Below, piece by piece: positions 41,132-63,990 of a DNA stretch of 64,000 nucleotides. Both the position numbers and the translations under genes were made by a program. Where the stretch lies: contig JAGVCW010000021.1 in assembly GCA_020059045.1 (NCBI GenBank), positions 27,821 through 91,820 of the forward strand, given 5' to 3'. Under the pieces are notes generated by a model, which did not search any database, had not been told where the DNA came from, and worked only from the letters and a program-made list of their open reading frames with translations. The DNA comes from Minisyncoccota bacterium. GTDB taxonomy: Bacteria; Patescibacteriota; Minisyncoccia; Phycocordibacterales; Zambryskibacteraceae. Numbering within the stretch: position 1 is the first letter of the stretch; the number at the start of each line of letters is the position of its first letter.

Positions 41132-41243
41132 GTCTCTATCATAGAGCAAAAGCACCCTGAGGGTGTTTTTGCTATTTCGCTCCCAGGTGGTTTACCACGA
41201 GCGAGCCTTCGACCTGGCTCAGGCCAGGGCGAAGCGAGTCGAG

Positions 41244-41678
41244 TGGAGATGGGCGGAATCGAACCGCCGTGCAATAGAAGAGATGAAAGATTTCTACAAG
41301 AGGTAGTTTGTTTCAATCTGCCTGTTGGCAGATATTTAGACTCTGTAAGTATGGAACAAACAAAATCTTACAAAGTCGAGCTTCTACATTTCGGAAACAA
41401 GCAAAGCAATTTGTTTCCAGAGTCTCAAGTTATTACGCGAGCAACTTGTTATGAGACATCACAAGTGCTAACGTCGCTTAGGCCGACCCAGACACCGAAG
41501 TGTCGGGTTAAGAGGCGTAAACGAAAGCGAAATCCTTAGCTCCAAAATATGGAGAAACTAGAGACCCAGCTTTTGCGACAATGCTGTTTGCAATTATCGG
41601 TTGTGGCGGATTTAAGAGTCACCACAGCTCTCCCTTGCATCTATCAAATGAATTCTACTGTCTAGGCCGATCATCCCC
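41244..41678 (-). ncRNA. ssrA: tmRNA
   Basis: 5' GGGGAUGAUCGGCCUAGACAG and 3' GGCGGUUCGAUUCCGCCCAUCUCCA. The acceptor stem GGGGAUG/CAUCUCC has the G3:U identity pair. smpB lies 350 nt away. Confidence 0.85.
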
Positions 41679-48739: not shown

Positions 48740-48802
48740 AATTTCTTTCTAATTAATAATTTGAAACTACGTTTAGTATATCAAGTTATGCAAGAATATT
48801 TG

Positions 48803-48876
48803 TCCACCCTCCACGATTTGAACGTGGGACCCTCGAGGTATAAGCTCGATGCTCTAACCAACTGAGCTAAGGGTGG
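48803..48876 (-). tRNA. tRNA-Ile with a genomically encoded UAU anticodon
   Basis: Hand-folded cloverleaf: CCACCCT ta GCTC agttggtta GAGC a TCGAG CTTATAC CTCGA gggtc CCACG ttcaaat CGTGG AGGGTGG a. No CCA is encoded. Confidence 0.8.
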
Positions 48877-53622: not shown

Positions 53623-55782
53623 CTATTCAAAATGGAATTGTTTGCGCTTCTCATCTATTTGATTTTTCAAAATGGGATATTTTTTAAGCTCTGGGTCTTC
53701 TTCAATAAGTTTTCCTGCTTCAAGTCGAGCAGCTTCAACCATCTTCAGATTTTTTATTGCTTCCATTCCTATATCAGAGAGCCCCCACTGCTTGCGACCG
53801 TAGAGCTCGCCTGCACCTCTCTGCACAAGGTCGAACTCGGCAAGCTCAAAGCCACTTTTTGCAGTGCGAAGTGCTTTGAGACGATCCATACTCTTACCAC
53901 TCTTTGTCTCAGAAAATATATAGCAGTAAGGTTGGTGTGAGCTTCGCATTACTCGCCCGCGAAGCTGGTGAAGCTGAGCAAGACCAAATCTTTCTGCCCC
54001 TTCAATTATGATTATTGTGGCATTTGGAACATTTACTCCAACTTCAACAACAGAAGTTGAAACCAAAATATTTATTTTTCCATCCTTAAAGTCGTTCATG
54101 ACTTCATCCTTCTCCCCAGGTTTCATTTTGCCGTGCATGACCCCAACTTGAAATTCGGTAAAAACATCTTTTTTAAGACGCTTTGCTTCTTCTGTAACAG
54201 ATTTTGCAATCAAAGCCATTTCCCGAGTAGGGTCTGGTTCATCAATACGAGGGCAAATCACGTATGCTTGGCGACCAGACCTTAGCTCTTTACGTATTTT
54301 TTCGTACACTTGGCCTCGAGTATTTGGCAATACAATTTCTGTAATAGGCCATTTACGACCAGGAGGTAGCTCATCAAGTAGTGAAAGATCGAGGTCCCCA
54401 TAGACAGTTAGGGCCAGTGTGCGGGGTATGGGGGTCGCAGTCATGCTCAAAAGGTGGGGGATGACTCCACCTCTCTCTCTAAATTTCTGCCTCTGTGTGG
54501 TTCCAAATTTGTGTTGTTCGTCGATAATTGAAAAAGCAAGATGTTTAAATTTAACGCTTTTCTGGATAAGAGTGTGAGTGCCAATAAGTATTGGTATCTC
54601 GCCACTTGCGACCCACTTGAGGAGCTGGGAACGAGAGATGTTTGTCGCACCAAGCGGATTTATTTTGGACGGAAACTTCCTTGCACCACTTCCGGTGATG
54701 AGGCCCACCTGAACTCCAGTATATGCAAAGTATTTAACAAATGACTCAAAGTGTTGCTCAGCCAAGATTTCTGTTGGAACCATGTATGCAACCTGAAGGT
54801 TCCCAAAGTCCTGATTCTTCGGCTTTGTGGAGATTACAGCGAATGATGCGGTGGCGGCGACAGCAGTTTTCCCACTTCCCACATCTCCTTCGAGAAGCCG
54901 AGCCATAGGCACACCCTTCTTGAAGTCATCTAGAATATGGTTTACAGATTTTTTTTGGGCTTCTGTAAGAGGGAAGGGAAATCTGCTGATAAAGTCCGTT
55001 AGTTCACTAAATTTTTTAGAGATCTCAAATGAATCATGTTGTTGCCAAAGTTTGCGACTCTTGTGTTTCTCAAGTTGAATGAAGAATACTTCTTCAAATG
55101 CAAACCGTTTACGTGCTGAGAGTGCATCGTCTTTGTTCTTCGGAGTGTGGATCCATATGAGAGCAGTTTTAAGTGTAGGAAGATTGTATTTTTTTAAAAT
55201 ACTTTCAGGTATGGGGTCCACCAGCTCATCAAGCAATCCTGATTTGAAAACTTTTTGGATTGCATGGAATATCCAGTTGGATGTTACACCACGGGTTTCA
55301 GGGTAGACAGGGTATAGGTAGTGGTCCTCGTTACCTTCACCAAATAGTGAAGTTGCCCCAGTGTGAAGTGGAAGCTTCGCAATATTTTCTATCTTCGGGT
55401 TAGAAAGATAGAGCTCTCCTTTTCTCTCCGAAACTTTTCCTTCGGCACGGACAAAGCTGCCATCCTGAAGCATTTTTGCCAAGTATGGCTGATTGAACCA
55501 AACAACCTTTATACTTCCAGTCTCATCTTCAAGCATACCTTCAGCCATAGGGATTTTCTTCTTCCATGCTTTCTTCATTTTGAGCCCAGAAATTTTCCCA
55601 AATATTACTGCCGCTTCTCCTCGAGCCAAGCTTTCTATAGATTTAATTTCTGAGGTGTCTCCATACCGGCTGGGGAAGTAGTGGAGAATGTCCTCGACAG
55701 TTAGTATGTCAATCTTCTTAAGAGCCTTTTGTTGAGGAGGAAGAATGCGTAGGTGATCCGTAAGTATAGAATCATTTTTCAT
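53623..55782 (-). CDS. recG: ATP-dependent DNA helicase RecG
   Basis: GDVGSGKT, DEQHKFG, SMTATPIPRTL, and QLHQLRGRV. Confidence 0.93.
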   Translation of the reverse strand: MKNDSILTDHLRILPPQQKALKKIDILTVEDILHYFPSRYGDTSEIKSIESLARGEAAVIFGKISGLKMKKAWKKKIPMAEGMLEDETGSIKVVWFNQPYLAKMLQDGSFVRAEGKVSERKGELYLSNPKIENIAKLPLHTGATSLFGEGNEDHYLYPVYPETRGVTSNWIFHAIQKVFKSGLLDELVDPIPESILKKYNLPTLKTALIWIHTPKNKDDALSARKRFAFEEVFFIQLEKHKSRKLWQQHDSFEISKKFSELTDFISRFPFPLTEAQKKSVNHILDDFKKGVPMARLLEGDVGSGKTAVAATASFAVISTKPKNQDFGNLQVAYMVPTEILAEQHFESFVKYFAYTGVQVGLITGSGARKFPSKINPLGATNISRSQLLKWVASGEIPILIGTHTLIQKSVKFKHLAFSIIDEQHKFGTTQRQKFRERGGVIPHLLSMTATPIPRTLALTVYGDLDLSLLDELPPGRKWPITEIVLPNTRGQVYEKIRKELRSGRQAYVICPRIDEPDPTREMALIAKSVTEEAKRLKKDVFTEFQVGVMHGKMKPGEKDEVMNDFKDGKINILVSTSVVEVGVNVPNATIIIIEGAERFGLAQLHQLRGRVMRSSHQPYCYIFSETKSGKSMDRLKALRTAKSGFELAEFDLVQRGAGELYGRKQWGLSDIGMEAIKNLKMVEAARLEAGKLIEEDPELKKYPILKNQIDEKRKQFHFE

Positions 55783-56284: not shown

Positions 56285-57073
56285 TCAAAAACTTAAGAAC
56301 TCAGGTTTCTGTCTAAATGCAGCTGACAAACCGACGGATTTACCGCGGTAGTCGTCGCTATAGCTGGTGATAGCGAGACCTCGATGATCAAAGTCGCCAA
56401 CAGCGACACGGGCACCGAATGAGTCGACATTGATGCAACGAACGTAGATCCCTTCAAACAAGCGCTCATCGGTGGCAAGAAAGTGACCGATTATGGTGTA
56501 AACCATGATCTGAGCAGTCGGGAGTTCCTCGTTTTTTGAAAGGAGTGCCAACTGGCCTTCCAAGGTTTCCCAGACTGAGTTGGGAATTGGTTCCTTGCGG
56601 ACCAACTGCCATGTGGGTATACCTTTGTCTGCCGCGAACGGCAGCTTTTTATACCAGTTCATGCTGTAAAGCAGGGTTTGGTCGGGCAGGTTCTTATCAA
56701 CGCCATGGATGTCGAGAATAGACAGTGGGAAAACTGCAACGAGAATGTGCGTATCCTTACAGGATTCGAGCACACTCTTTTTGAACGGAATTTCGCCGAG
56801 ATCGGAAAGCTGTTGCTTCGTGGCTTTAACCCCGAAGTACTTGATCGCCTCCTCGATACCGAAGAAGTTCCTTCCCATGATCACTCGTGCAAGTATCTGT
56901 GATTCGGAAGGTTCATAACCACCGCTGATCATGAATCGTGCAACTTTTCCCACGAATTCAGGGTCCGTATTGAGGCGGTCGGCGACTTCGTCAGCGTTGT
57001 TCCTGAAAGCCCTCCATAAGCGTTGATTGGCGGCATTGATGTCACCATGGGGGACTTGAGTCCATACTTTCAT
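56285..57073 (-). CDS. Orphan protein (262 aa)
   Basis: I set the start to ATG 57073 after AAAGGTG. TTGCTT-17-TATAAT on the minus strand near 57250-57290. The leader contains a 12-bp inverted repeat. Confidence 0.5.
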   Translation of the reverse strand: MKVWTQVPHGDINAANQRLWRAFRNNADEVADRLNTDPEFVGKVARFMISGGYEPSESQILARVIMGRNFFGIEEAIKYFGVKATKQQLSDLGEIPFKKSVLESCKDTHILVAVFPLSILDIHGVDKNLPDQTLLYSMNWYKKLPFAADKGIPTWQLVRKEPIPNSVWETLEGQLALLSKNEELPTAQIMVYTIIGHFLATDERLFEGIYVRCINVDSFGARVAVGDFDHRGLAITSYSDDYRGKSVGLSAAFRQKPEFLSF

Positions 57074-57439
57074 GTTTTTCACCTTTTCTGTTAGCCTTTT
57101 TGAAGTTATCTTGAAGGCGACTAGAAAGTGGGAATACGATCCCGGTTTACGTCTTGCCTCGGATGAGACAAGCTTTTTAAGTCCTAATATTTTAAGGCCC
57201 AGAAAGCTTGTCTCACTTGAGTTTTGTATGAAGAGCAGTTGTTTATGTTCTTTTTGTATTATACTATATATGAGCTTAAAAAGCAAGGGCTATTTCCGGC
57301 CTATAAATATGCCGTTTTTTGGTTGTAATATGTCTTGACATGTATGTTATAATATGCTATGTTGCAAGTGGATTCAGCGGTATGTCCTTGGGCAATTTCG
57401 CTTCAGGGGTGAGTCGCTGACCAAAACAAGGAGCTAGGC

Positions 57440-58015
57440 ATGTCATTTGGAAAAGATTACCGTCTCGTTGGTGAAGCTACAGTGACCGGAGAGAAGTTTG
57501 GTGCTGGAACAACCTTCTGGTCATCTCTTGTACATACCGACATTATCGGTCGGATCAGGCTGATGGTTGAACACTACGCCATTGTTGGGAAGTACATTGG
57601 TCAGCCACTGGTCTATGATCGGGAAGAGCTCATTGCATGGCTCACTGATCGATCTAGCAACTGTCTCAAGTGTTACCCGTATTACGTGGATGATGAGAAA
57701 ATGTTAATAACGGACCAACCCCGTTTCATTTCCGAGTTTTTTTCCAAAATGAAGGAAATCGGGCTCGGGTGGATGGAGTTCCGGCTGTATTACGGTAGGC
57801 TAATCGACAAGTATTTTCAAAGAAATACCAAGTCCCTCGAATCCGATTGGGATGAGAAGGAAATCTTTCGCTCAGAACCGCGTCCTGGGGCACTCTTCGA
57901 TGATTGCATAACTCCCCAACGCTTCGTTGATGTTCTGGATGAGATCGTAGCGAACCGGCGACGGATACACGAGCTTCCTGTTGCACGGGCTGTGCCCACG
58001 TATAGCTATAAGTAA
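57440..58015 (+). CDS. Orphan protein (191 aa)
   Basis: ATG follows AAGGAG, with TTGACA at 57335 upstream. A strong terminator follows. Confidence 0.5.
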   Translation: MSFGKDYRLVGEATVTGEKFGAGTTFWSSLVHTDIIGRIRLMVEHYAIVGKYIGQPLVYDREELIAWLTDRSSNCLKCYPYYVDDEKMLITDQPRFISEFFSKMKEIGLGWMEFRLYYGRLIDKYFQRNTKSLESDWDEKEIFRSEPRPGALFDDCITPQRFVDVLDEIVANRRRIHELPVARAVPTYSYK

Positions 58016-58053
58016 AATCGTACTCGGCGAAATCGAGTAGAGAAATCATATCG

Positions 58054-58083
58054 GTCGGTAGGCCAAAAACCTACCGACTTTTT
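58054..58083 (+). terminator. Intrinsic terminator
   Basis: GTCGGTAGG / CCTACCGAC stem followed by TTTTT. Confidence 0.75.
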
Positions 58084-58099
58084 CATGTAAATTTATTTT

Positions 58100-58560
58100 G
58101 AGAGAGAGTGGGAATTTCTCCCTCGACTCAAAATTGTTTCATTTTACTTAAAATAGATTGAAAAGGGATTCGGTCACAGATAATTTTCTGTTGAAAAAGT
58201 TCACCCCACAAGTTTTTGCATACTTGCAAAACTTGCAGGCCCACCTCAGCTCGACAGCTTCCGGTCTTGCGAAAGCTTCAACTATTCGCTTTCTCACCCC
58301 GCCTCGCGCCGTCGCGCTCCGGCTTTCGAATCCCACCTCTCACGCGCCGACGTCCGACTCGAACAGCACATTTGGCTGTTCTTTCCGGTCGTTGCGGAGA
58401 CGATGCCCGGAACTTTGAACCAAAAATACGGCTCAAATTCGAGGATCTTGATAAAAGTATACAGAAACTAAGAGCTATCTACAAAGTCCACCCTGAATGG
58501 TTTGAAGTACCAAAACCCAAATCAACCAAAGGTAAGAACGAGGTAGACTATTCGATTTAG
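58100..58560 (+). repeat. Composite tRNA-Ser-debris plus coding-fragment module, copy 1
   Basis: Contains GAGAGAGTGGGAATT (antisense tRNA-Ser 3' remnant), a 36-nt block at 58167-58202, and TTCGAATCCCAC (58325-58336). A conserved 53-codon segment at 58396-58554 ends in TAG at 58558. Confidence 0.8.
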
Positions 58561-58570
58561 CACTGGTTAT

Positions 58571-59497
58571 TTAGTAACTTTGTGCAAGAGTATTATCAAA
58601 TACATGCTCGTATCTTTCGGGCGAACCAAATCCATGCTCATCAAAATCATCAAGTAAATCTTTTAGCGGAAATGACCTGGCGCCATCTTTTCTCCTGACT
58701 ATGCAGCGACCACCTTGTTTAGTACCAAAAGGATGCCTTTGAGGACTGACCACATCTTCTTGGATATAAGGCTTAGAAAAGACCTCTTTATTAAAGTAAG
58801 CAATGACTTTCTTGTGAACCGTATCTAAATAATTCTTTCCTGAATCATCCCCGTTGAAATATTCCCCATGCACCAATCGATTTCTTAACCCATTTTCATC
58901 TGCAAATATTTCTGTTGCTAAATCCTCACCTAAAATCTTTGTATATAAATTTATTGACTTTTTGAATACAGATTTATTCCTTTTCCGAGCCATTGCTTCC
59001 ATTGCAGAAAACATCAAAAGAAGTTTTGCAGAATAACCTGAAGCGTTTACAGCGTCATTCCAGTAATGATAGAAGGGTTCTGGAATTTCCTCATGTTTTA
59101 GGAGTTCTACTAGACCGTCTCGTTCTTTCTCCATAAACATCAACCCTCCTGATTTCACATCTTGACTGTACTCAAAAAACGCAATGTCTCTACTGAGATC
59201 ATGAACTATAAAAGGTTCTCTTGTGAATTCTATGTACGACTGACAAATTAATGATATGCGTGGAATGAGTTTGTTCAACCTTGCTCTAAAAACATTTATT
59301 GCGTCTATAAAGTTTTCAGCTTCAATTTCACAGGTTGCAATCCAAGCATCTGAATCTTTCCAGCCATCTCTAAAATTAAAGTCACAATGGGAAAATTCCA
59401 AACCTTCAATTTCAAACGAAGCAGGTTTTTCTTTCACCTCCATTACTGCGCAATGAGCAAGTGTGAGAATTTTATGTTCTATTCTGTATTTTTTCAT
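58571..59497 (-). CDS. Orphan protein with a HEPN-like RNxxxH motif (putative RNase or Abi-type)
   Basis: GLRNRLVHGEY sits in a helical C-terminal half, after a beta-rich N-terminal half. The start codon abuts the guaA stop (TAAATG). Confidence 0.4.
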   Translation of the reverse strand: MKKYRIEHKILTLAHCAVMEVKEKPASFEIEGLEFSHCDFNFRDGWKDSDAWIATCEIEAENFIDAINVFRARLNKLIPRISLICQSYIEFTREPFIVHDLSRDIAFFEYSQDVKSGGLMFMEKERDGLVELLKHEEIPEPFYHYWNDAVNASGYSAKLLLMFSAMEAMARKRNKSVFKKSINLYTKILGEDLATEIFADENGLRNRLVHGEYFNGDDSGKNYLDTVHKKVIAYFNKEVFSKPYIQEDVVSPQRHPFGTKQGGRCIVRRKDGARSFPLKDLLDDFDEHGFGSPERYEHVFDNTLAQSY

Positions 59498-61030
59498 TTA
59501 TTCGTACTCAATTGTAGCTGGAGGCTTTTGAGTAATATCGTAAAGAACGCGATTTACCCCTCGCACCTTGCCGATAATCGCGCTGGATATTTTTTCCAGC
59601 AGCTCATTTGGGATTTTGTGCCAGTCAGCACTCATACCATCTATCGAATCAACTGCGCGAAGCGCGATCACGTATTCATACGTACGACCATCGCCCATAA
59701 CACCTACCACTTTAACTGGCAGTAGTGCGGCAAAGGCCTGCCAGATCTTTTCGTACTCTCCTGCTTTGCGTAGCTCCTCAATAAATACCGAATCAGCTTC
59801 GCGGAGGATTTGAAGCCGCTCTTCGGTGATTTCTCCGACAATACGTACTGCAAGTCCTGGACCTGGGAATGGATGCCTCCAGAGAAGTTCTCTTGGAAGT
59901 CCTAGAGTTAAACCTACGCGACGCACTTCATCTTTGTACAAATCCTTTATGGGCTCAAGTATTTTGAAGCCCATCTTTTCGGGAAGCGTGAGGTTGTGAT
60001 GGCTCTTGATTTTCGCTACCGTTTTAGATGTTGAAGCAGACTCAATACGGTCGGGATAAATAGTACCTTGAGCTAAATATGCGATTGTATGTTTTTTGAG
60101 TTCATTTTTAATTGCTTTCTCAAACACTTCAATAAAGCTGTGGCCGATGATTTTACGTTTCTGCTCTGGGTCGGAAATGCCCTTTAAGCGTTTTAAGAAG
60201 AGAGGGCTTGCATCTATGACATGTAGTTGTCTGAAGCCATTTTTGCGTAGGTATGAAGCTACTTGTTCAACCTCCCCCTTACGAAGAAGCCCTGTATCGA
60301 CAAAGACTGCATGTAGGCGATTGCCAATGGTCCTATGGATAAGTGTAGCTGCTACCAGTGAATCGACGCCGCCTGAAATACCCACAACTACGTGCCTGTC
60401 TCCAACCTCATTTTTAACCTCCGCGACGATATTTTCTGTCACTGAGTTAATCCTCCAGTTCTTTTTGGCTTTACATATTGAGAATAGGAAGTTCTTAAGT
60501 AATTTTTCTCCATGCTGAGTATGGGTGACCTCTGGATGGAACTGGATGCCGTAGAAGTTGTTTTGTAAATCAGCAAAAGCAGCATATTTGCAGCCAATAG
60601 TAGATGCTGTCTGTTTAAACCCCTTAGGCAAAGCTGATACTTGGTCACCATGCGAGAACCACACAACTTCTTTTGAGGAGAGCGTCTGGAAAATTCCGCT
60701 CTTGTTTTTGATTGCAAGATTTTCTTTGCCGAACTCTCGATGTTTCCCTTTGGCAACCTTGCCACCAAGCATTTGCGCCATGACTTGATGCCCGTAGCAG
60801 ATGCCAAGAACTGGAATACCGATTTTGAATATTGGTTTGTCGGGTCTAGGACTACCTTTTTCTAGGACTGATGCAGGGCCACCTGAAAGGATGATACCAA
60901 CAGGATTATGTTTCTGTATTTCAGAAGCAGGAGTATCAAAAGGCAAAATCTCGGCTTTTACACCGAGATCCCGCACGCGTCTTGCAATGAGATGGGCAAA
61001 CTGGCTTCCGAAATTGAGGATTATGACCAT
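59498..61030 (-). CDS. guaA: GMP synthase (glutamine-hydrolysing)
   Basis: GATase region (GICYGHQ), the ATP-PPase SGGVDS loop, and C-terminal ..PPATIEYE. I set the start to ATG 61030. Confidence 0.95.
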   Translation of the reverse strand: MVIILNFGSQFAHLIARRVRDLGVKAEILPFDTPASEIQKHNPVGIILSGGPASVLEKGSPRPDKPIFKIGIPVLGICYGHQVMAQMLGGKVAKGKHREFGKENLAIKNKSGIFQTLSSKEVVWFSHGDQVSALPKGFKQTASTIGCKYAAFADLQNNFYGIQFHPEVTHTQHGEKLLKNFLFSICKAKKNWRINSVTENIVAEVKNEVGDRHVVVGISGGVDSLVAATLIHRTIGNRLHAVFVDTGLLRKGEVEQVASYLRKNGFRQLHVIDASPLFLKRLKGISDPEQKRKIIGHSFIEVFEKAIKNELKKHTIAYLAQGTIYPDRIESASTSKTVAKIKSHHNLTLPEKMGFKILEPIKDLYKDEVRRVGLTLGLPRELLWRHPFPGPGLAVRIVGEITEERLQILREADSVFIEELRKAGEYEKIWQAFAALLPVKVVGVMGDGRTYEYVIALRAVDSIDGMSADWHKIPNELLEKISSAIIGKVRGVNRVLYDITQKPPATIEYE

Positions 61031-61079
61031 AGTAAATAATATCACTAATTATTGGCCAAACGAACCTTATTTTACCTTG

Positions 61080-61106
61080 GTTCAAAGTTGCCAATCTGGC
61101 GGAGAG
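61080..61106. repeat. 27-bp att-like core, copy 1 (tRNA-Ser 3' end plus 17 nt of downstream flank)
   Basis: GTTCAAAGTTGCCAATCTGGCGGAGAG is identical to 62654-62680. Confidence 0.9.
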
Positions 61107-61186
61107 AGTGGGATTCGAACCCACGGTTCCGGTAAAGGAACGACGGTTTAGTAAACCGTTGATTTAAACCACTCATCCATCTCTCC
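61097..61186 (-). tRNA. Class II tRNA (Ser-type long variable arm); anticodon loop UUACUAA reads ACU
   Basis: GGAGAGA tg GAT gagtggtttaa ATC a ACGGT TTACTAA ACCGT, variable arm cGTTCCtttaccGGAACc, GTGGG ttcgaat CCCAC TCTCTCC g CCA. Confidence 0.8.
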
Positions 61187-61258
61187 ATATATTTACTTCG
61201 CTCAAATGGAGGCGCATACGCGCATCGGTGGACTCGTGGTCAGCTTTAAGGCCGGCTT

Positions 61259-61302
61259 GGATAGAAGCAGTTCTATCCTTCGCCCATCTCATCCGTCTCT
61301 CC
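61259..61302 (-). pseudogene. Decayed tRNA-Ser(GCU)-like 5' half
   Basis: GGAGAGACGGATGAGATGGGCGAAGG mirrors the acceptor and D-arm of the neighbouring tRNA. TAGAA-CTGC-TTCTA looks like a GCU anticodon arm with a shortened loop. There is no T-arm. Confidence 0.5.
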
Positions 61303-61358
61303 ATTGTTCAGGTAAGAAGTATACCTTGTGAATGAAAAGTGTTAAATATAGTTTATAT

Positions 61359-62622: not shown

Positions 62623-62653
62623 AATTTGTTCAAAATGGCCTTACTTTGCTTAA

Positions 62654-63073
62654 GTTCAAAGTTGCCAATCTGGCGGAGAGGGAAGAATGATTCGGTCACG
62701 AATCTTTTTCTGTTGAAAAAGTTCTCGACCTGGATTTCGAATCTGTTTCGAGTCTTACAGACTCTGTACACCTTTCGTATCGTGCTCGTAAACTGCGCGC
62801 GATGTACTCAAGGTTTTCGAATCTCCCACGTCCCGCTGTGGTGGGACTCCTCTCTCGCAAAATCACATCCCTTAAGAAGGGATAGATTTTGGCGGGGATG
62901 ATGCTCGGAACTTTGAACCTAAAACACGGCTCACGTTCGAGAATCTTGATAAAAGTATACAGAAACTAAGGGCTATCTACAAAGTCCACCCTGAATGGTT
63001 TGAAGTTCCTAAGCCGAAATCAGATAAAGGCAGGAATGAGGTTGATTACACTGAGCTTAACCAACCTTCATGA
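62654..63073 (+). repeat. Composite tRNA-Ser-debris plus coding-fragment module, copy 2
   Basis: Starts with the 27-bp att-like core. Then a 36-nt block (62689-62724), TTCGAATC-T-CCCAC (62816-62829), and the conserved coding segment at 62894-63052, open from 62876 to TGA 63071 with no ATG/GTG/TTG. Confidence 0.8.
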
Positions 63074-63990
63074 GCAGAATCGGCTGCTTTCGTATTGTCG
63101 AAAATAGAGTCAATGCGACGGATTATCGGAGCGTCGAGTGCAGAACCAACGTGCAAGAGAAATTCTTTTGTCGTTTCTAATATTAACTGTGCAATTGGCA
63201 GTATTTGTTGAGGTCTTGGGCGCCCCCATTCAAATTTTGGACTGAATCCTTGATCGCTGTATTCAAGATGATGGTCTAAAATGTCCGTCCAGTTACCATG
63301 AATGCTACGAGAACTACCGCCGTAAAGAGCAAGATACGTAGACTCAAGTCCTACGTCCCTAGTTCTCTCATAGAAGTTTTTATTTCCCCATTCTTTCGGT
63401 TGGTTTGGTAATACATCATCAATTTTTATTCCTGACTTCCTCGCGACTTTTTCAATAGATGAGAGCATTCGGTGCTCAATGTGTAAACTTATTCCTTTTC
63501 TATTTTCAATGTTTTTTGAAATTAAATCTCGTAATTTTCTCTCATTGCGTAATGCGTATTTTACGTATGAGTCGAACAGTTCTGTTGAATCATTTTTAAT
63601 TAAAAACTTTATGTTTACTACGTTTTCAAATAGAAGACGCGAAATAATAAAAACGACTTCTTGCCGTTTTTGACAAATTTGATCTAAATGAGCAGATAAG
63701 AGTTTGGAAAGACGTACAAAGTTGCCACCAATGATAGCTTGATCTCGAGTCCACTTCTTTGAGTCCGGGGGCAATACACCAGCAGCGAGCGCTACTATTG
63801 AAGCTGTTTCTTTCATCAGCTCTACTGACAGATGCATAAAATCGTCTTCGTTCTTTAGAGAATCAAGCTGTTCAGGAGTTATTTCGATGTGATTGATGGT
63901 CTCGAGTATCTCACCAATATCCGCTAATTCAGTTTCTTTACTTTCATTCATGAATGTCGTGCTTACCGTCGTTATAAAGTTTACGACCAT
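63046..63990 (-). CDS. Orphan helical protein, possibly Abi-like
   Basis: 314-codon ORF whose 3' end overlaps module copy 2 convergently by 28 nt. NRKGISLH fits Rx5H and GGSSRSIHGNW is also present. I cannot place the family. Confidence 0.45.
   Translation of the reverse strand: MVVNFITTVSTTFMNESKETELADIGEILETINHIEITPEQLDSLKNEDDFMHLSVELMKETASIVALAAGVLPPDSKKWTRDQAIIGGNFVRLSKLLSAHLDQICQKRQEVVFIISRLLFENVVNIKFLIKNDSTELFDSYVKYALRNERKLRDLISKNIENRKGISLHIEHRMLSSIEKVARKSGIKIDDVLPNQPKEWGNKNFYERTRDVGLESTYLALYGGSSRSIHGNWTDILDHHLEYSDQGFSPKFEWGRPRPQQILPIAQLILETTKEFLLHVGSALDAPIIRRIDSIFDNTKAADSAHEGWLSSV

Follow-up and report, generated by a model that had tools for sequence, protein, structure and literature searches.

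The ACU anticodon in tRNA-Ser genes conserved in one Parcubacteria lineage and abundant in phages

Whether a serine tRNA with the anticodon ACU can be a working tRNA, and which codons it would read, is the question raised by a gene in a 64,000-nt stretch of contig JAGVCW010000021.1 (the window, meaning the whole stretch analysed). The gene, tRNA-Ser(ACU), encodes adenosine at the first anticodon position (A34). Encoded A34 in bacteria normally means inosine (I34) and is essentially confined to tRNA-Arg(ACG) (review), and A34 in the split box of serine and arginine was called "universally missing" in a 2021 review. The A34 tRNAs of two-codon boxes were described as "extremely rare" and their absence as unexplained in a preprint of May 2026, for which such tRNAs were built artificially to ask why (bioRxiv 10.64898/2026.05.15.725136). 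Ser-ACU is not mentioned in the main text of a 2026 study on the tRNA genes of 95 complete Patescibacteria genomes. No published account of a natural tRNA-Ser(ACU) was found, which is a soft negative as the bracketed form "Ser(ACU)" cannot be matched in a text search. The preliminary description of the window had also restricted bacterial A34 essentially to tRNA-Arg(ACG); this agrees with the reviews but is untrue of the lineage and the phages reported here. Although thought not to occur in nature, the ACU anticodon proved to be conserved in one bacterial lineage and abundant in phages, a spread that the preliminary description did not foresee. The reading preferred here, with a probability of about 0.6, is a working and vertically inherited tRNA-Ser of Parcubacteria (Patescibacteria, or candidate phyla radiation), in which A34 would not become inosine and only AGU would be read, a separate tRNA-Ser(GCU) reading AGC.

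The gene and the selection on its fold

ARAGORN called two tRNAs in the window, both on the minus strand (Table 1), and the other one is tRNA-Ile(UAU), so that tRNA-Ser(ACU) is the only tRNA-Ser it finds there. The Rfam tRNA model RF00005 matched it with 59 bits (E=3.4e-10) at 71 of 71 model positions. The layout read on the minus strand is GGAGAGA-TG-GAT-GAGTGGTTTAA-ATC-A-ACGGT-TTACTAA-ACCGT-[18-nt variable arm]-GTGGG-TTCGAAT-CCCAC-TCTCTCC-G-CCA. It gives an acceptor stem of 7 bp (GGAGAGA/TCTCTCC), a D stem of 3 bp (GAT/ATC), the anticodon stem ACGGT/ACCGT, the T stem GTGGG/CCCAC and a variable region of 18 nt, including a 5-bp stem with four covarying pairs. The discriminator G73 and the CCA end are both encoded. 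The anticodon loop of 7 nt, UUACUAA, holds U33, A34-C35-U36 and A37 in their usual places, and ARAGORN gives the anticodon as act. The structure and the anticodon given in the preliminary description were thus confirmed in every detail. Two alternative readings of the arm were ruled out: a CUA anticodon at positions 35-37, as of a suppressor, would put A at position 33, and the hairpin of 7 bp and 3 nt returned by the terminator scan and RNAalifold gives way to the 7-nt loop, which is canonical with U33 and A37.

The cloverleaf, the long variable arm, the 3-bp D stem and G73 make the gene a class II tRNA-Ser. Its anticodon lies outside the usual serine set (NGA or GCU) and still matches the serine codon AGU. 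Recognition by seryl-tRNA synthetase (SerRS) depends on the variable arm and the acceptor and is independent of the anticodon; judged from these identity elements, the tRNA would be charged with serine by SerRS. The G+C content of the window is about 42%, and the nearest named relatives of its RecG protein are Parcubacteria, Paceibacterota or "Patescibacteria group" bacteria (65-71% identity). The relatives of its guaA are also metagenome-assembled genomes (MAGs) of Patescibacteria.

The recurrence of the gene was analysed in a metagenome and a viral collection with the degenerate search pattern GAGNGGTNNAANNCNNNGGNTTACTAANCC, which runs over D loop and anticodon arm and admits ACT alone as the anticodon. 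The pattern matched at least 120 loci in each collection. Among the matches listed, tRNA-Ser(act) was called by ARAGORN at 115 metagenome and 120 viral loci, and the 147 distinct tRNA-Ser(ACU) sequences fell into 10 clusters. The window gene belongs to the Parcubacteria-type cluster 7, with at least 44 distinct sequences from at least 51 loci including the window and, among the matches listed, no member from the viral collection. The median number of tRNAs per locus in this cluster is two. The marks taken for this cluster, an identity of at least about 80% to other members and the arm (A/G)CGGTTTACTAAACCG(T/C), were both found in the window gene; identities to individual members are 97% (L190), 93% (L110) and 82% (L024). 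Ser-ACU was the only A-starting anticodon among the 1061 tRNAs called across all the fetched loci.

Selection acts on the tRNA-Ser(ACU) fold. Among 32 aligned members of the cluster of the window (A2), 99.1% of the cells form standard pairs and double-sided changes occur at 12 of 25 pairs. The covariation score is 0.455 compared to 0.141 for shuffled alignments, none of 500 reaching the observed value, and it falls to 0.086 or less with slid partners. The signal comes from columns left free by the search, namely the acceptor, variable and T stems and the pairs 11:25 and 28:44. When all clusters are taken together, RNAalifold yields the cloverleaf, and 20 of its 27 pairs show compensatory changes. 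G73, G1-C72, G2-C71 and A3-U70 are invariant in the 32-member alignment, and the same acceptor start is found in the GCU, GGA, UGA and CGA tRNA-Ser genes of the relatives.

In phages, tRNA-Ser(ACU) is present in at least 120 viral contigs. The nine clusters other than that of the window consist mostly of viral contigs among the matches listed. The phage genes stand in tRNA arrays with Gln-UUG, Asn-GUU, Thr-UGU, Arg-UCU, Lys-UUU, Glu-UUC and Ile-UAU, and Ser-GCU accompanies ACU in only 2 of the 120 viral loci listed. A scan with A or G allowed at position 34 gave 65 ACU and 55 GCU genes among 120 matches listed, and the arm CGGTTT-NCT-AAACCG is common to both. The window gene carries this phage type of arm, CGGTTT-ACT-AAACCG, and is thereby closer to the phage type than to the GCU tRNA of the cell. 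Among six cultured or GenBank phages checked with ARAGORN, only Ralstonia phage RP13 (LC554890.1, 138609-138698) has ACU; most carry UGA or GCU. Another array, in the gut phage scaffold L326 (MT835556.1, 507-584), holds a CUA tRNA labelled Pyl by ARAGORN, probably the amber suppressor of a stop-codon-recoded human-gut phage.

Synteny, codon reading and rival explanations

The position of the gene relative to tRNA-Ser(GCU) was compared across the cluster. A GCU gene lies at most 600 nt upstream in 22 of the 43 loci with enough sequence. Nearby GCU partners number 26 across the 51 loci (22 divergent and 4 tandem), and a GCU gene occurs somewhere in the available sequence of 31 of them, usually 100-500 nt off. 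The partner belongs to a different sequence family with the stem CCTCT/AGAGG and the loop UUGCUAA, a stem which shows that the ACU gene did not arise from its neighbour by a recent point mutation. Other neighbours recur as well: recG near tRNA-Ser(ACU) in 13 cluster loci, tRNA-Ile(UAU) in 6 loci with the window not counted, and a 650-aa protein, which flanks tRNA-Ile(UAU), in the vicinity in 6 loci. The neighbourhood of the gene in the window also has recG and tRNA-Ile(UAU), with cassettes in between, and the window ends 2.8 kb upstream of tRNA-Ser(ACU).

Loci were also sampled independently by recG alone, the anticodon being unused. Near recG, the NCBI genome GCA_002396705.1 (L384) has the GCU/ACU pair and tRNA-Ile(UAU), a 752-kb JGI contig (L382) has the GCU tRNA-Ser only, and GW2011_GWA1_40_21 (L386/L387) has no tRNA-Ser genes. 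These outcomes indicate that the ACU gene is vertically inherited and restricted to one lineage within Parcubacteria. The preliminary description had offered a second tRNA-Ser(GCU) as one way out; of its alternatives this one has the best support, by way of the relatives only, and by comparison with them the genome of the window itself would be expected to hold such a gene, although none lies in the window. In L384 a cassette array is attached to the GCU partner, and by analogy a GCU gene may lie on the minus strand a few kb upstream, just beyond window coordinate 64000.

In the preferred reading A34 would stay adenosine and AGU would be read by a Watson-Crick pair only, while tRNA-Ser(GCU) would cover AGC and could wobble on AGU too. 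The 61 long open reading frames (ORFs) of the window use 239 AGT and 142 AGC codons, the use of AGC being in accordance with the preliminary description. AGU is thus the commoner AGY codon, which fits a dedicated AGU reader. The synthetases of the other NNY two-codon boxes use the anticodon, and the serine box is the exception, the only such box whose synthetase ignores it; AGY is therefore the one two-codon pyrimidine box where a change of G34 to A would cost nothing in charging. I34 pairs with U, C and A, and inosine would be avoided because ICU would put serine at AGA, the commonest arginine codon in the same ORFs (253 uses). The chances are evenly balanced for the wider proposal that unmodified A34 is used in a split box, with a Parcubacteria lineage using ACU for AGU and GCU for AGC and with phages spreading ACU widely, often as the only AGY tRNA.

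Some results weigh against this reading. ARAGORN found no tRNA-Ser(GCU) in the 64-kb window, and 16 of the 43 cluster loci with at least 600 nt of upstream sequence show no GCU gene in the available sequence; should some genomes be without GCU, AGC would also have to be read by ACU. As the search pattern fixed the anticodon loop and a portion of the arm, the invariance of these columns is uninformative. Phe-tRNA(AAA), with A34 in a two-codon box, is deaminated in E. coli (bioRxiv 10.64898/2026.05.15.725136), and the specificity of the deaminase TadA thereby looks looser than one study suggests. The AGU fraction is lower in the phage contigs with ACU (L201-L320) than in those with GCU (L327-L381), with medians of 0.59 and 0.71 (p=4e-5), in a comparison of small local stretches that are not phylogenetically independent. 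The trend runs opposite to the prediction of a simple codon-supply model, and simple adaptation to AGU-rich coding was rejected as the reason why phages carry ACU.

The last point bears on an alternative in which A34 is an escape from an anticodon nuclease or another tRNA-targeting defence that recognises tRNA-Ser(GCU). The ACU gene would have been spread by phages and acquired from them by the Parcubacteria lineage, AGU decoding being a retained function. This account is unlikely as a whole, and for the phage copies evasion stays a serious contender. In its favour, phage contigs with ACU show no enrichment in AGU, phage tRNA-Ser genes with the shared arm carry ACU about as often as GCU, and the arm of the window gene is of phage type, unlike the GCU tRNA of the cell. 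Abi-like (DUF5677) and cassette genes surround the locus of the window. To our knowledge no nuclease specific for tRNA-Ser(GCU) has been described, and none was found here. Phage tRNAs do escape anticodon nucleases through loop mutations, but tRNA-Ser(GCU) is listed as not targeted (PMC10264068). The cellular ACU gene is also stably syntenic and coexists with GCU, which argues against evasion.

Conversion of A34 to inosine by a TadA-like enzyme is improbable. It would give a general AGY decoder reading AGU and AGC, and weakly AGA, that is able to replace GCU. The usual meaning of encoded A34 in bacteria (review), the scarcity of GCU in the ACU phage arrays, the roughly 40% of cellular loci with enough upstream sequence that show no GCU and the deamination of Phe-tRNA(AAA) are consistent with it. 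The anticodon loop is not: the TadA substrate loop is C32-U33-A34-C35-G36-A37-A38, whereas the window gene has U32-U33-A34-C35-U36-A37-A38. According to Schmitt et al. 2024 (PMC11066159), TadA no longer acted on other A34 tRNAs once position 32, 37 or 38 was changed. Inosine is given there for only 3 of 15 A34 tRNAs, of which AAG and AUG are named, and ACG is treated as fully modified. The paper reports no deamination of an ACU tRNA in E. coli, where an orthogonal ACU tRNA read AGU at 9.4% and AGG at 0.36%, with AGC and AGA below detection.

The gene content of the relatives also speaks against inosine. The tRNA-Arg genes in related Patescibacteria loci (L009, L011, L018, L025, L026, L028) have GCG with CCG, UCG and UCU, and no tRNA-Arg(ACG) was seen in these loci, which suggests that these lineages are without wobble inosine and TadA. 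No HAE...PCxxC deaminase motif occurs among the ORFs of the window, which is weak evidence as 64 kb were covered. The GCU partner is kept beside ACU in most loci, and ICU would insert serine at AGA. The modification of A34 raised in the preliminary description is therefore not supported.

That the gene is a non-translating relic or decoy, a by-product of cassettes targeting tRNA-Ser such as a recombination site kept for integrases, is very doubtful. The gene does lie inside a cassette array bounded by tRNA-Ser-like repeats, with a decayed tRNA-like copy immediately upstream. However, the 3' part of a tRNA is enough for a recombination site, and here all four stems covary and the long variable arm is preserved together with U33, A37 and G73. 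The true remnants nearby show plain decay and draw no tRNA call, and most of the related loci have the ACU gene without cassettes. The decoy proposed earlier thus finds no support, the strong compensatory covariation arguing for a working tRNA. As ACU is one base away from the normal GCU, an error of sequencing or assembly, or a G-to-A mutation private to this one genome, would be conceivable, but it is already refuted by the same anticodon in at least 236 other independent loci, including the NCBI genome that was reached without using the anticodon.

The absence of A-wobble tRNAs, especially in two-codon boxes, is a long-standing puzzle. If the wider proposal is true, the textbook statement that this anticodon is universally missing would be overturned, and a natural system, including the cultured phage RP13, would be at hand for testing why A-starting anticodons are avoided. 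In practice, a Ser-ACU call in a Patescibacteria or phage genome should not be dismissed by annotators as an error or a pseudogene.

The cassette array and neighbouring RNA elements

The features of the window are summarized in Table 1.

Table 1. Coordinates of the tRNA-Ser(ACU) gene and of neighbouring features in the window
Feature	Coordinates	Strand	Evidence
tRNA-Ser(ACU) gene, class II cloverleaf, G73, encoded CCA	61097..61186	-	ARAGORN, Rfam, sequence, family covariation
Anticodon A34-C35-U36 in loop UUACUAA	61150..61152	-	Sequence; ARAGORN sets the anticodon at gene position 35
66-nt leader GATTGGCAACTTTGAACC..., starting exactly after CCA and running to the guaA start; cassette junction	61031..61096	-	Alignment A1
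guaA (GMP synthase), cassette gene downstream of the tRNA	59498..61030	-	Pfam GATase and GMP_synt_C
tRNA-like remnant directly upstream of the tRNA	61200..61302	-	Sequence; fold z=-1.9
Promoter-like site TTAACA-16-TATACT upstream of the remnant	61318..61345	-	Consensus scan, 10/12 matches; pattern match only
Second junction copy, CTCTCCGCCA and GATTGGCAACTTTGAAC, without intact tRNA, before tRNA_bind and His_Phos genes	62626..62680	-	Direct repeat D2, exact 12-mer match
Cassette-boundary repeat copy B	62677..63048	-	Direct repeats D1, D3; decayed T arm and acceptor 3' strand of tRNA-Ser type, split by an insertion
Cassette-boundary repeat copy A, on the far side of guaA and a 308-aa ORF	58155..58553	-	Direct repeats D1, D3
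recG	53623..55782
tRNA-Ile(UAU)	48802..48876	-	ARAGORN
One-piece transfer-messenger RNA (tmRNA), 438 nt	41241..41678	-	Rfam, 101.5 bits

The sequence behind the tRNA is shared with other loci. The leader is nearly identical after tRNA-Ser(GGA/GCU/CGA) in L001, L002, L004 and L008, and the tRNA bodies differ. In the loci compared guaA always follows the CCA of a tRNA-Ser (GGA, GCU, CGA, UGA or ACU), the 66-nt leader being shared by the window and the same four loci, and the DNA of leader and guaA together is nearly identical behind tRNA-Ser(GGA), (GCU) and (CGA) of other Patescibacteria. The copies of the guaA protein are 82-94% identical and stand beside different tRNA-Ser genes in MAGs labelled as different candidate phyla. 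Boundary repeats of about 160-400 nt, which end like a tRNA 3' end, separate the cassettes (guaA, His_Phos and others). The same repeat, of about 160 nt, occurs in L001-L005 and L384, the repeat with the His_Phos cassette in L003 and L384, and at least four copies of the repeat in L003.

These recurring junctions and repeats indicate that the locus is an array of mobile cassettes that enter at the 3' ends of tRNA-Ser genes, the ACU tRNA being one of the anchor points. The suggestion of the preliminary description that the gene is island-borne holds for its surroundings but not for the tRNA itself, which by its synteny with recG, tRNA-Ile(UAU) and the GCU partner appears to be the chromosomal target and not cargo. 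In L009 (5921-5990) a partial duplicate of the tRNA-Ser(UGA) 3' end (GAATCTCACCCTCTCCGCCAG) was seen 20 nt after the intact tRNA and before guaA, the type of repeat that site-specific integration leaves. Defence-type genes occur among the cassettes of the window (63046-63990 on the minus strand and 56285-59497), with a DUF5677 protein and several ORFs without family match, and those of L384 (2247-5996) include AbiTii, a BglII-type endonuclease and a methyltransferase.

The remnant directly upstream of the tRNA consists of a copy of the first 19 nt or so of the tRNA (GGAGAGAcGGATGAGaTGG), a hairpin with the loop AACUGCUU and a last part similar to the 3' end of a tRNA (GCGCCTCCA). Counterparts were found upstream of tRNA-Ser genes in L024, L128 and L195. 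It was rejected as the missing tRNA-Ser(GCU), having no D or T arm and no ARAGORN call even with introns allowed and at low thresholds, where the extra calls are noise. Rfam gave no match on it at E up to 10. Given the promoter-like site upstream, the remnant is probably part of the tRNA precursor, both lying in one transcript.

Another tRNA-like element, of about 135-190 nt, was observed just 3' of tRNA-Ser genes, past the terminators (L199 at about 960-1095, L172 at about 760-630 on the minus strand, L090, L133, L146, L157), with decayed copies in the window at 62677-62830 and 58155-58400. Its 5' half has an acceptor 5' strand GGAGNCG (7 nt), AGC, a 7-bp hairpin with the same loop of 8 nt, here invariant, a T-stem strand GNGAGA and TTCGAA. 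The 3' half has a structured insert of about 95 nt (hairpin loop UGUAAG), TCTCNC, the matching acceptor 3' strand, G and CA. The acceptor halves covary between loci, and there is no D or anticodon arm. Rfam gave no match on this element in the related loci. A recombination site is conceivable, as is an unknown RNA, perhaps one that SerRS charges.

Two further RNAs of the window were noted. A tRNA-Ile(UAU) with C1-G72 as its first pair occurs in the window and in L021, L024, L083, L090, L105, L143, L172, L382, L384 and L386. ATA is common in the window (379 uses). AUA is read in most bacteria by a lysidine-modified CAU tRNA, and by this comparison the lineage probably decodes AUA without TilS. 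An insertion of about 50 nt in the tmRNA falls in the part that the Rfam alignment places immediately ahead of pseudoknot 1, and a similar tmRNA follows smpB in L382 and L384.

Comparison with known systems

The closest known counterpart is bacterial tRNA-Ser(GCU) of the E. coli serV type, which serves the same codon box and shares the class II fold, the long variable arm, the 3-bp D stem, G73 and the loop end ...CUAA. Phage tRNA-Ser(GCU) genes with the identical arm CGGTTT-GCT-AAACCG also exist. The ACU tRNA differs in having A and not G at position 34; reading of AGC is not expected, and AGU would be read by a Watson-Crick pair instead of a G·U wobble. The cellular lineage has it as an extra gene alongside a GCU gene of a different sequence family. 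Phage tRNA arrays that supply readers of A/U-ending codons are the home of the phage ACU genes, whereas the window gene is cellular, stands in a chromosomal context and in no such array, and belongs to a cluster without viral match among the matches listed.

The tRNA-Arg(ACG) modified by TadA to I34 resembles it in the gene-encoded A34 and in the U33-A34-C35 and A37-A38 context. It serves the CGN four-codon box, where I34 is harmless, whereas I34 in the ACU tRNA would misread AGA; positions 32 and 36 of the ACU loop are both U, in place of C32 and G36, and the relatives appear to be without tRNA-Arg(ACG). Natural A34 tRNAs that are probably left as adenosine are Mycoplasma tRNA-Thr(AGU), yeast mitochondrial tRNA-Arg(ACG) and two of the four in Oenococcus oeni. 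These serve four-codon family boxes, in contrast to the split box of tRNA-Ser(ACU). The engineered ACU tRNAs of E. coli (PMC11066159; bioRxiv 10.64898/2026.05.15.725136) have the same anticodon, are tolerated, escape deamination in the tRNA body used and read AGU almost exclusively. They are artificial and either charged with tyrosine or placed on E. coli backbones, whereas tRNA-Ser(ACU) is a natural and conserved family.

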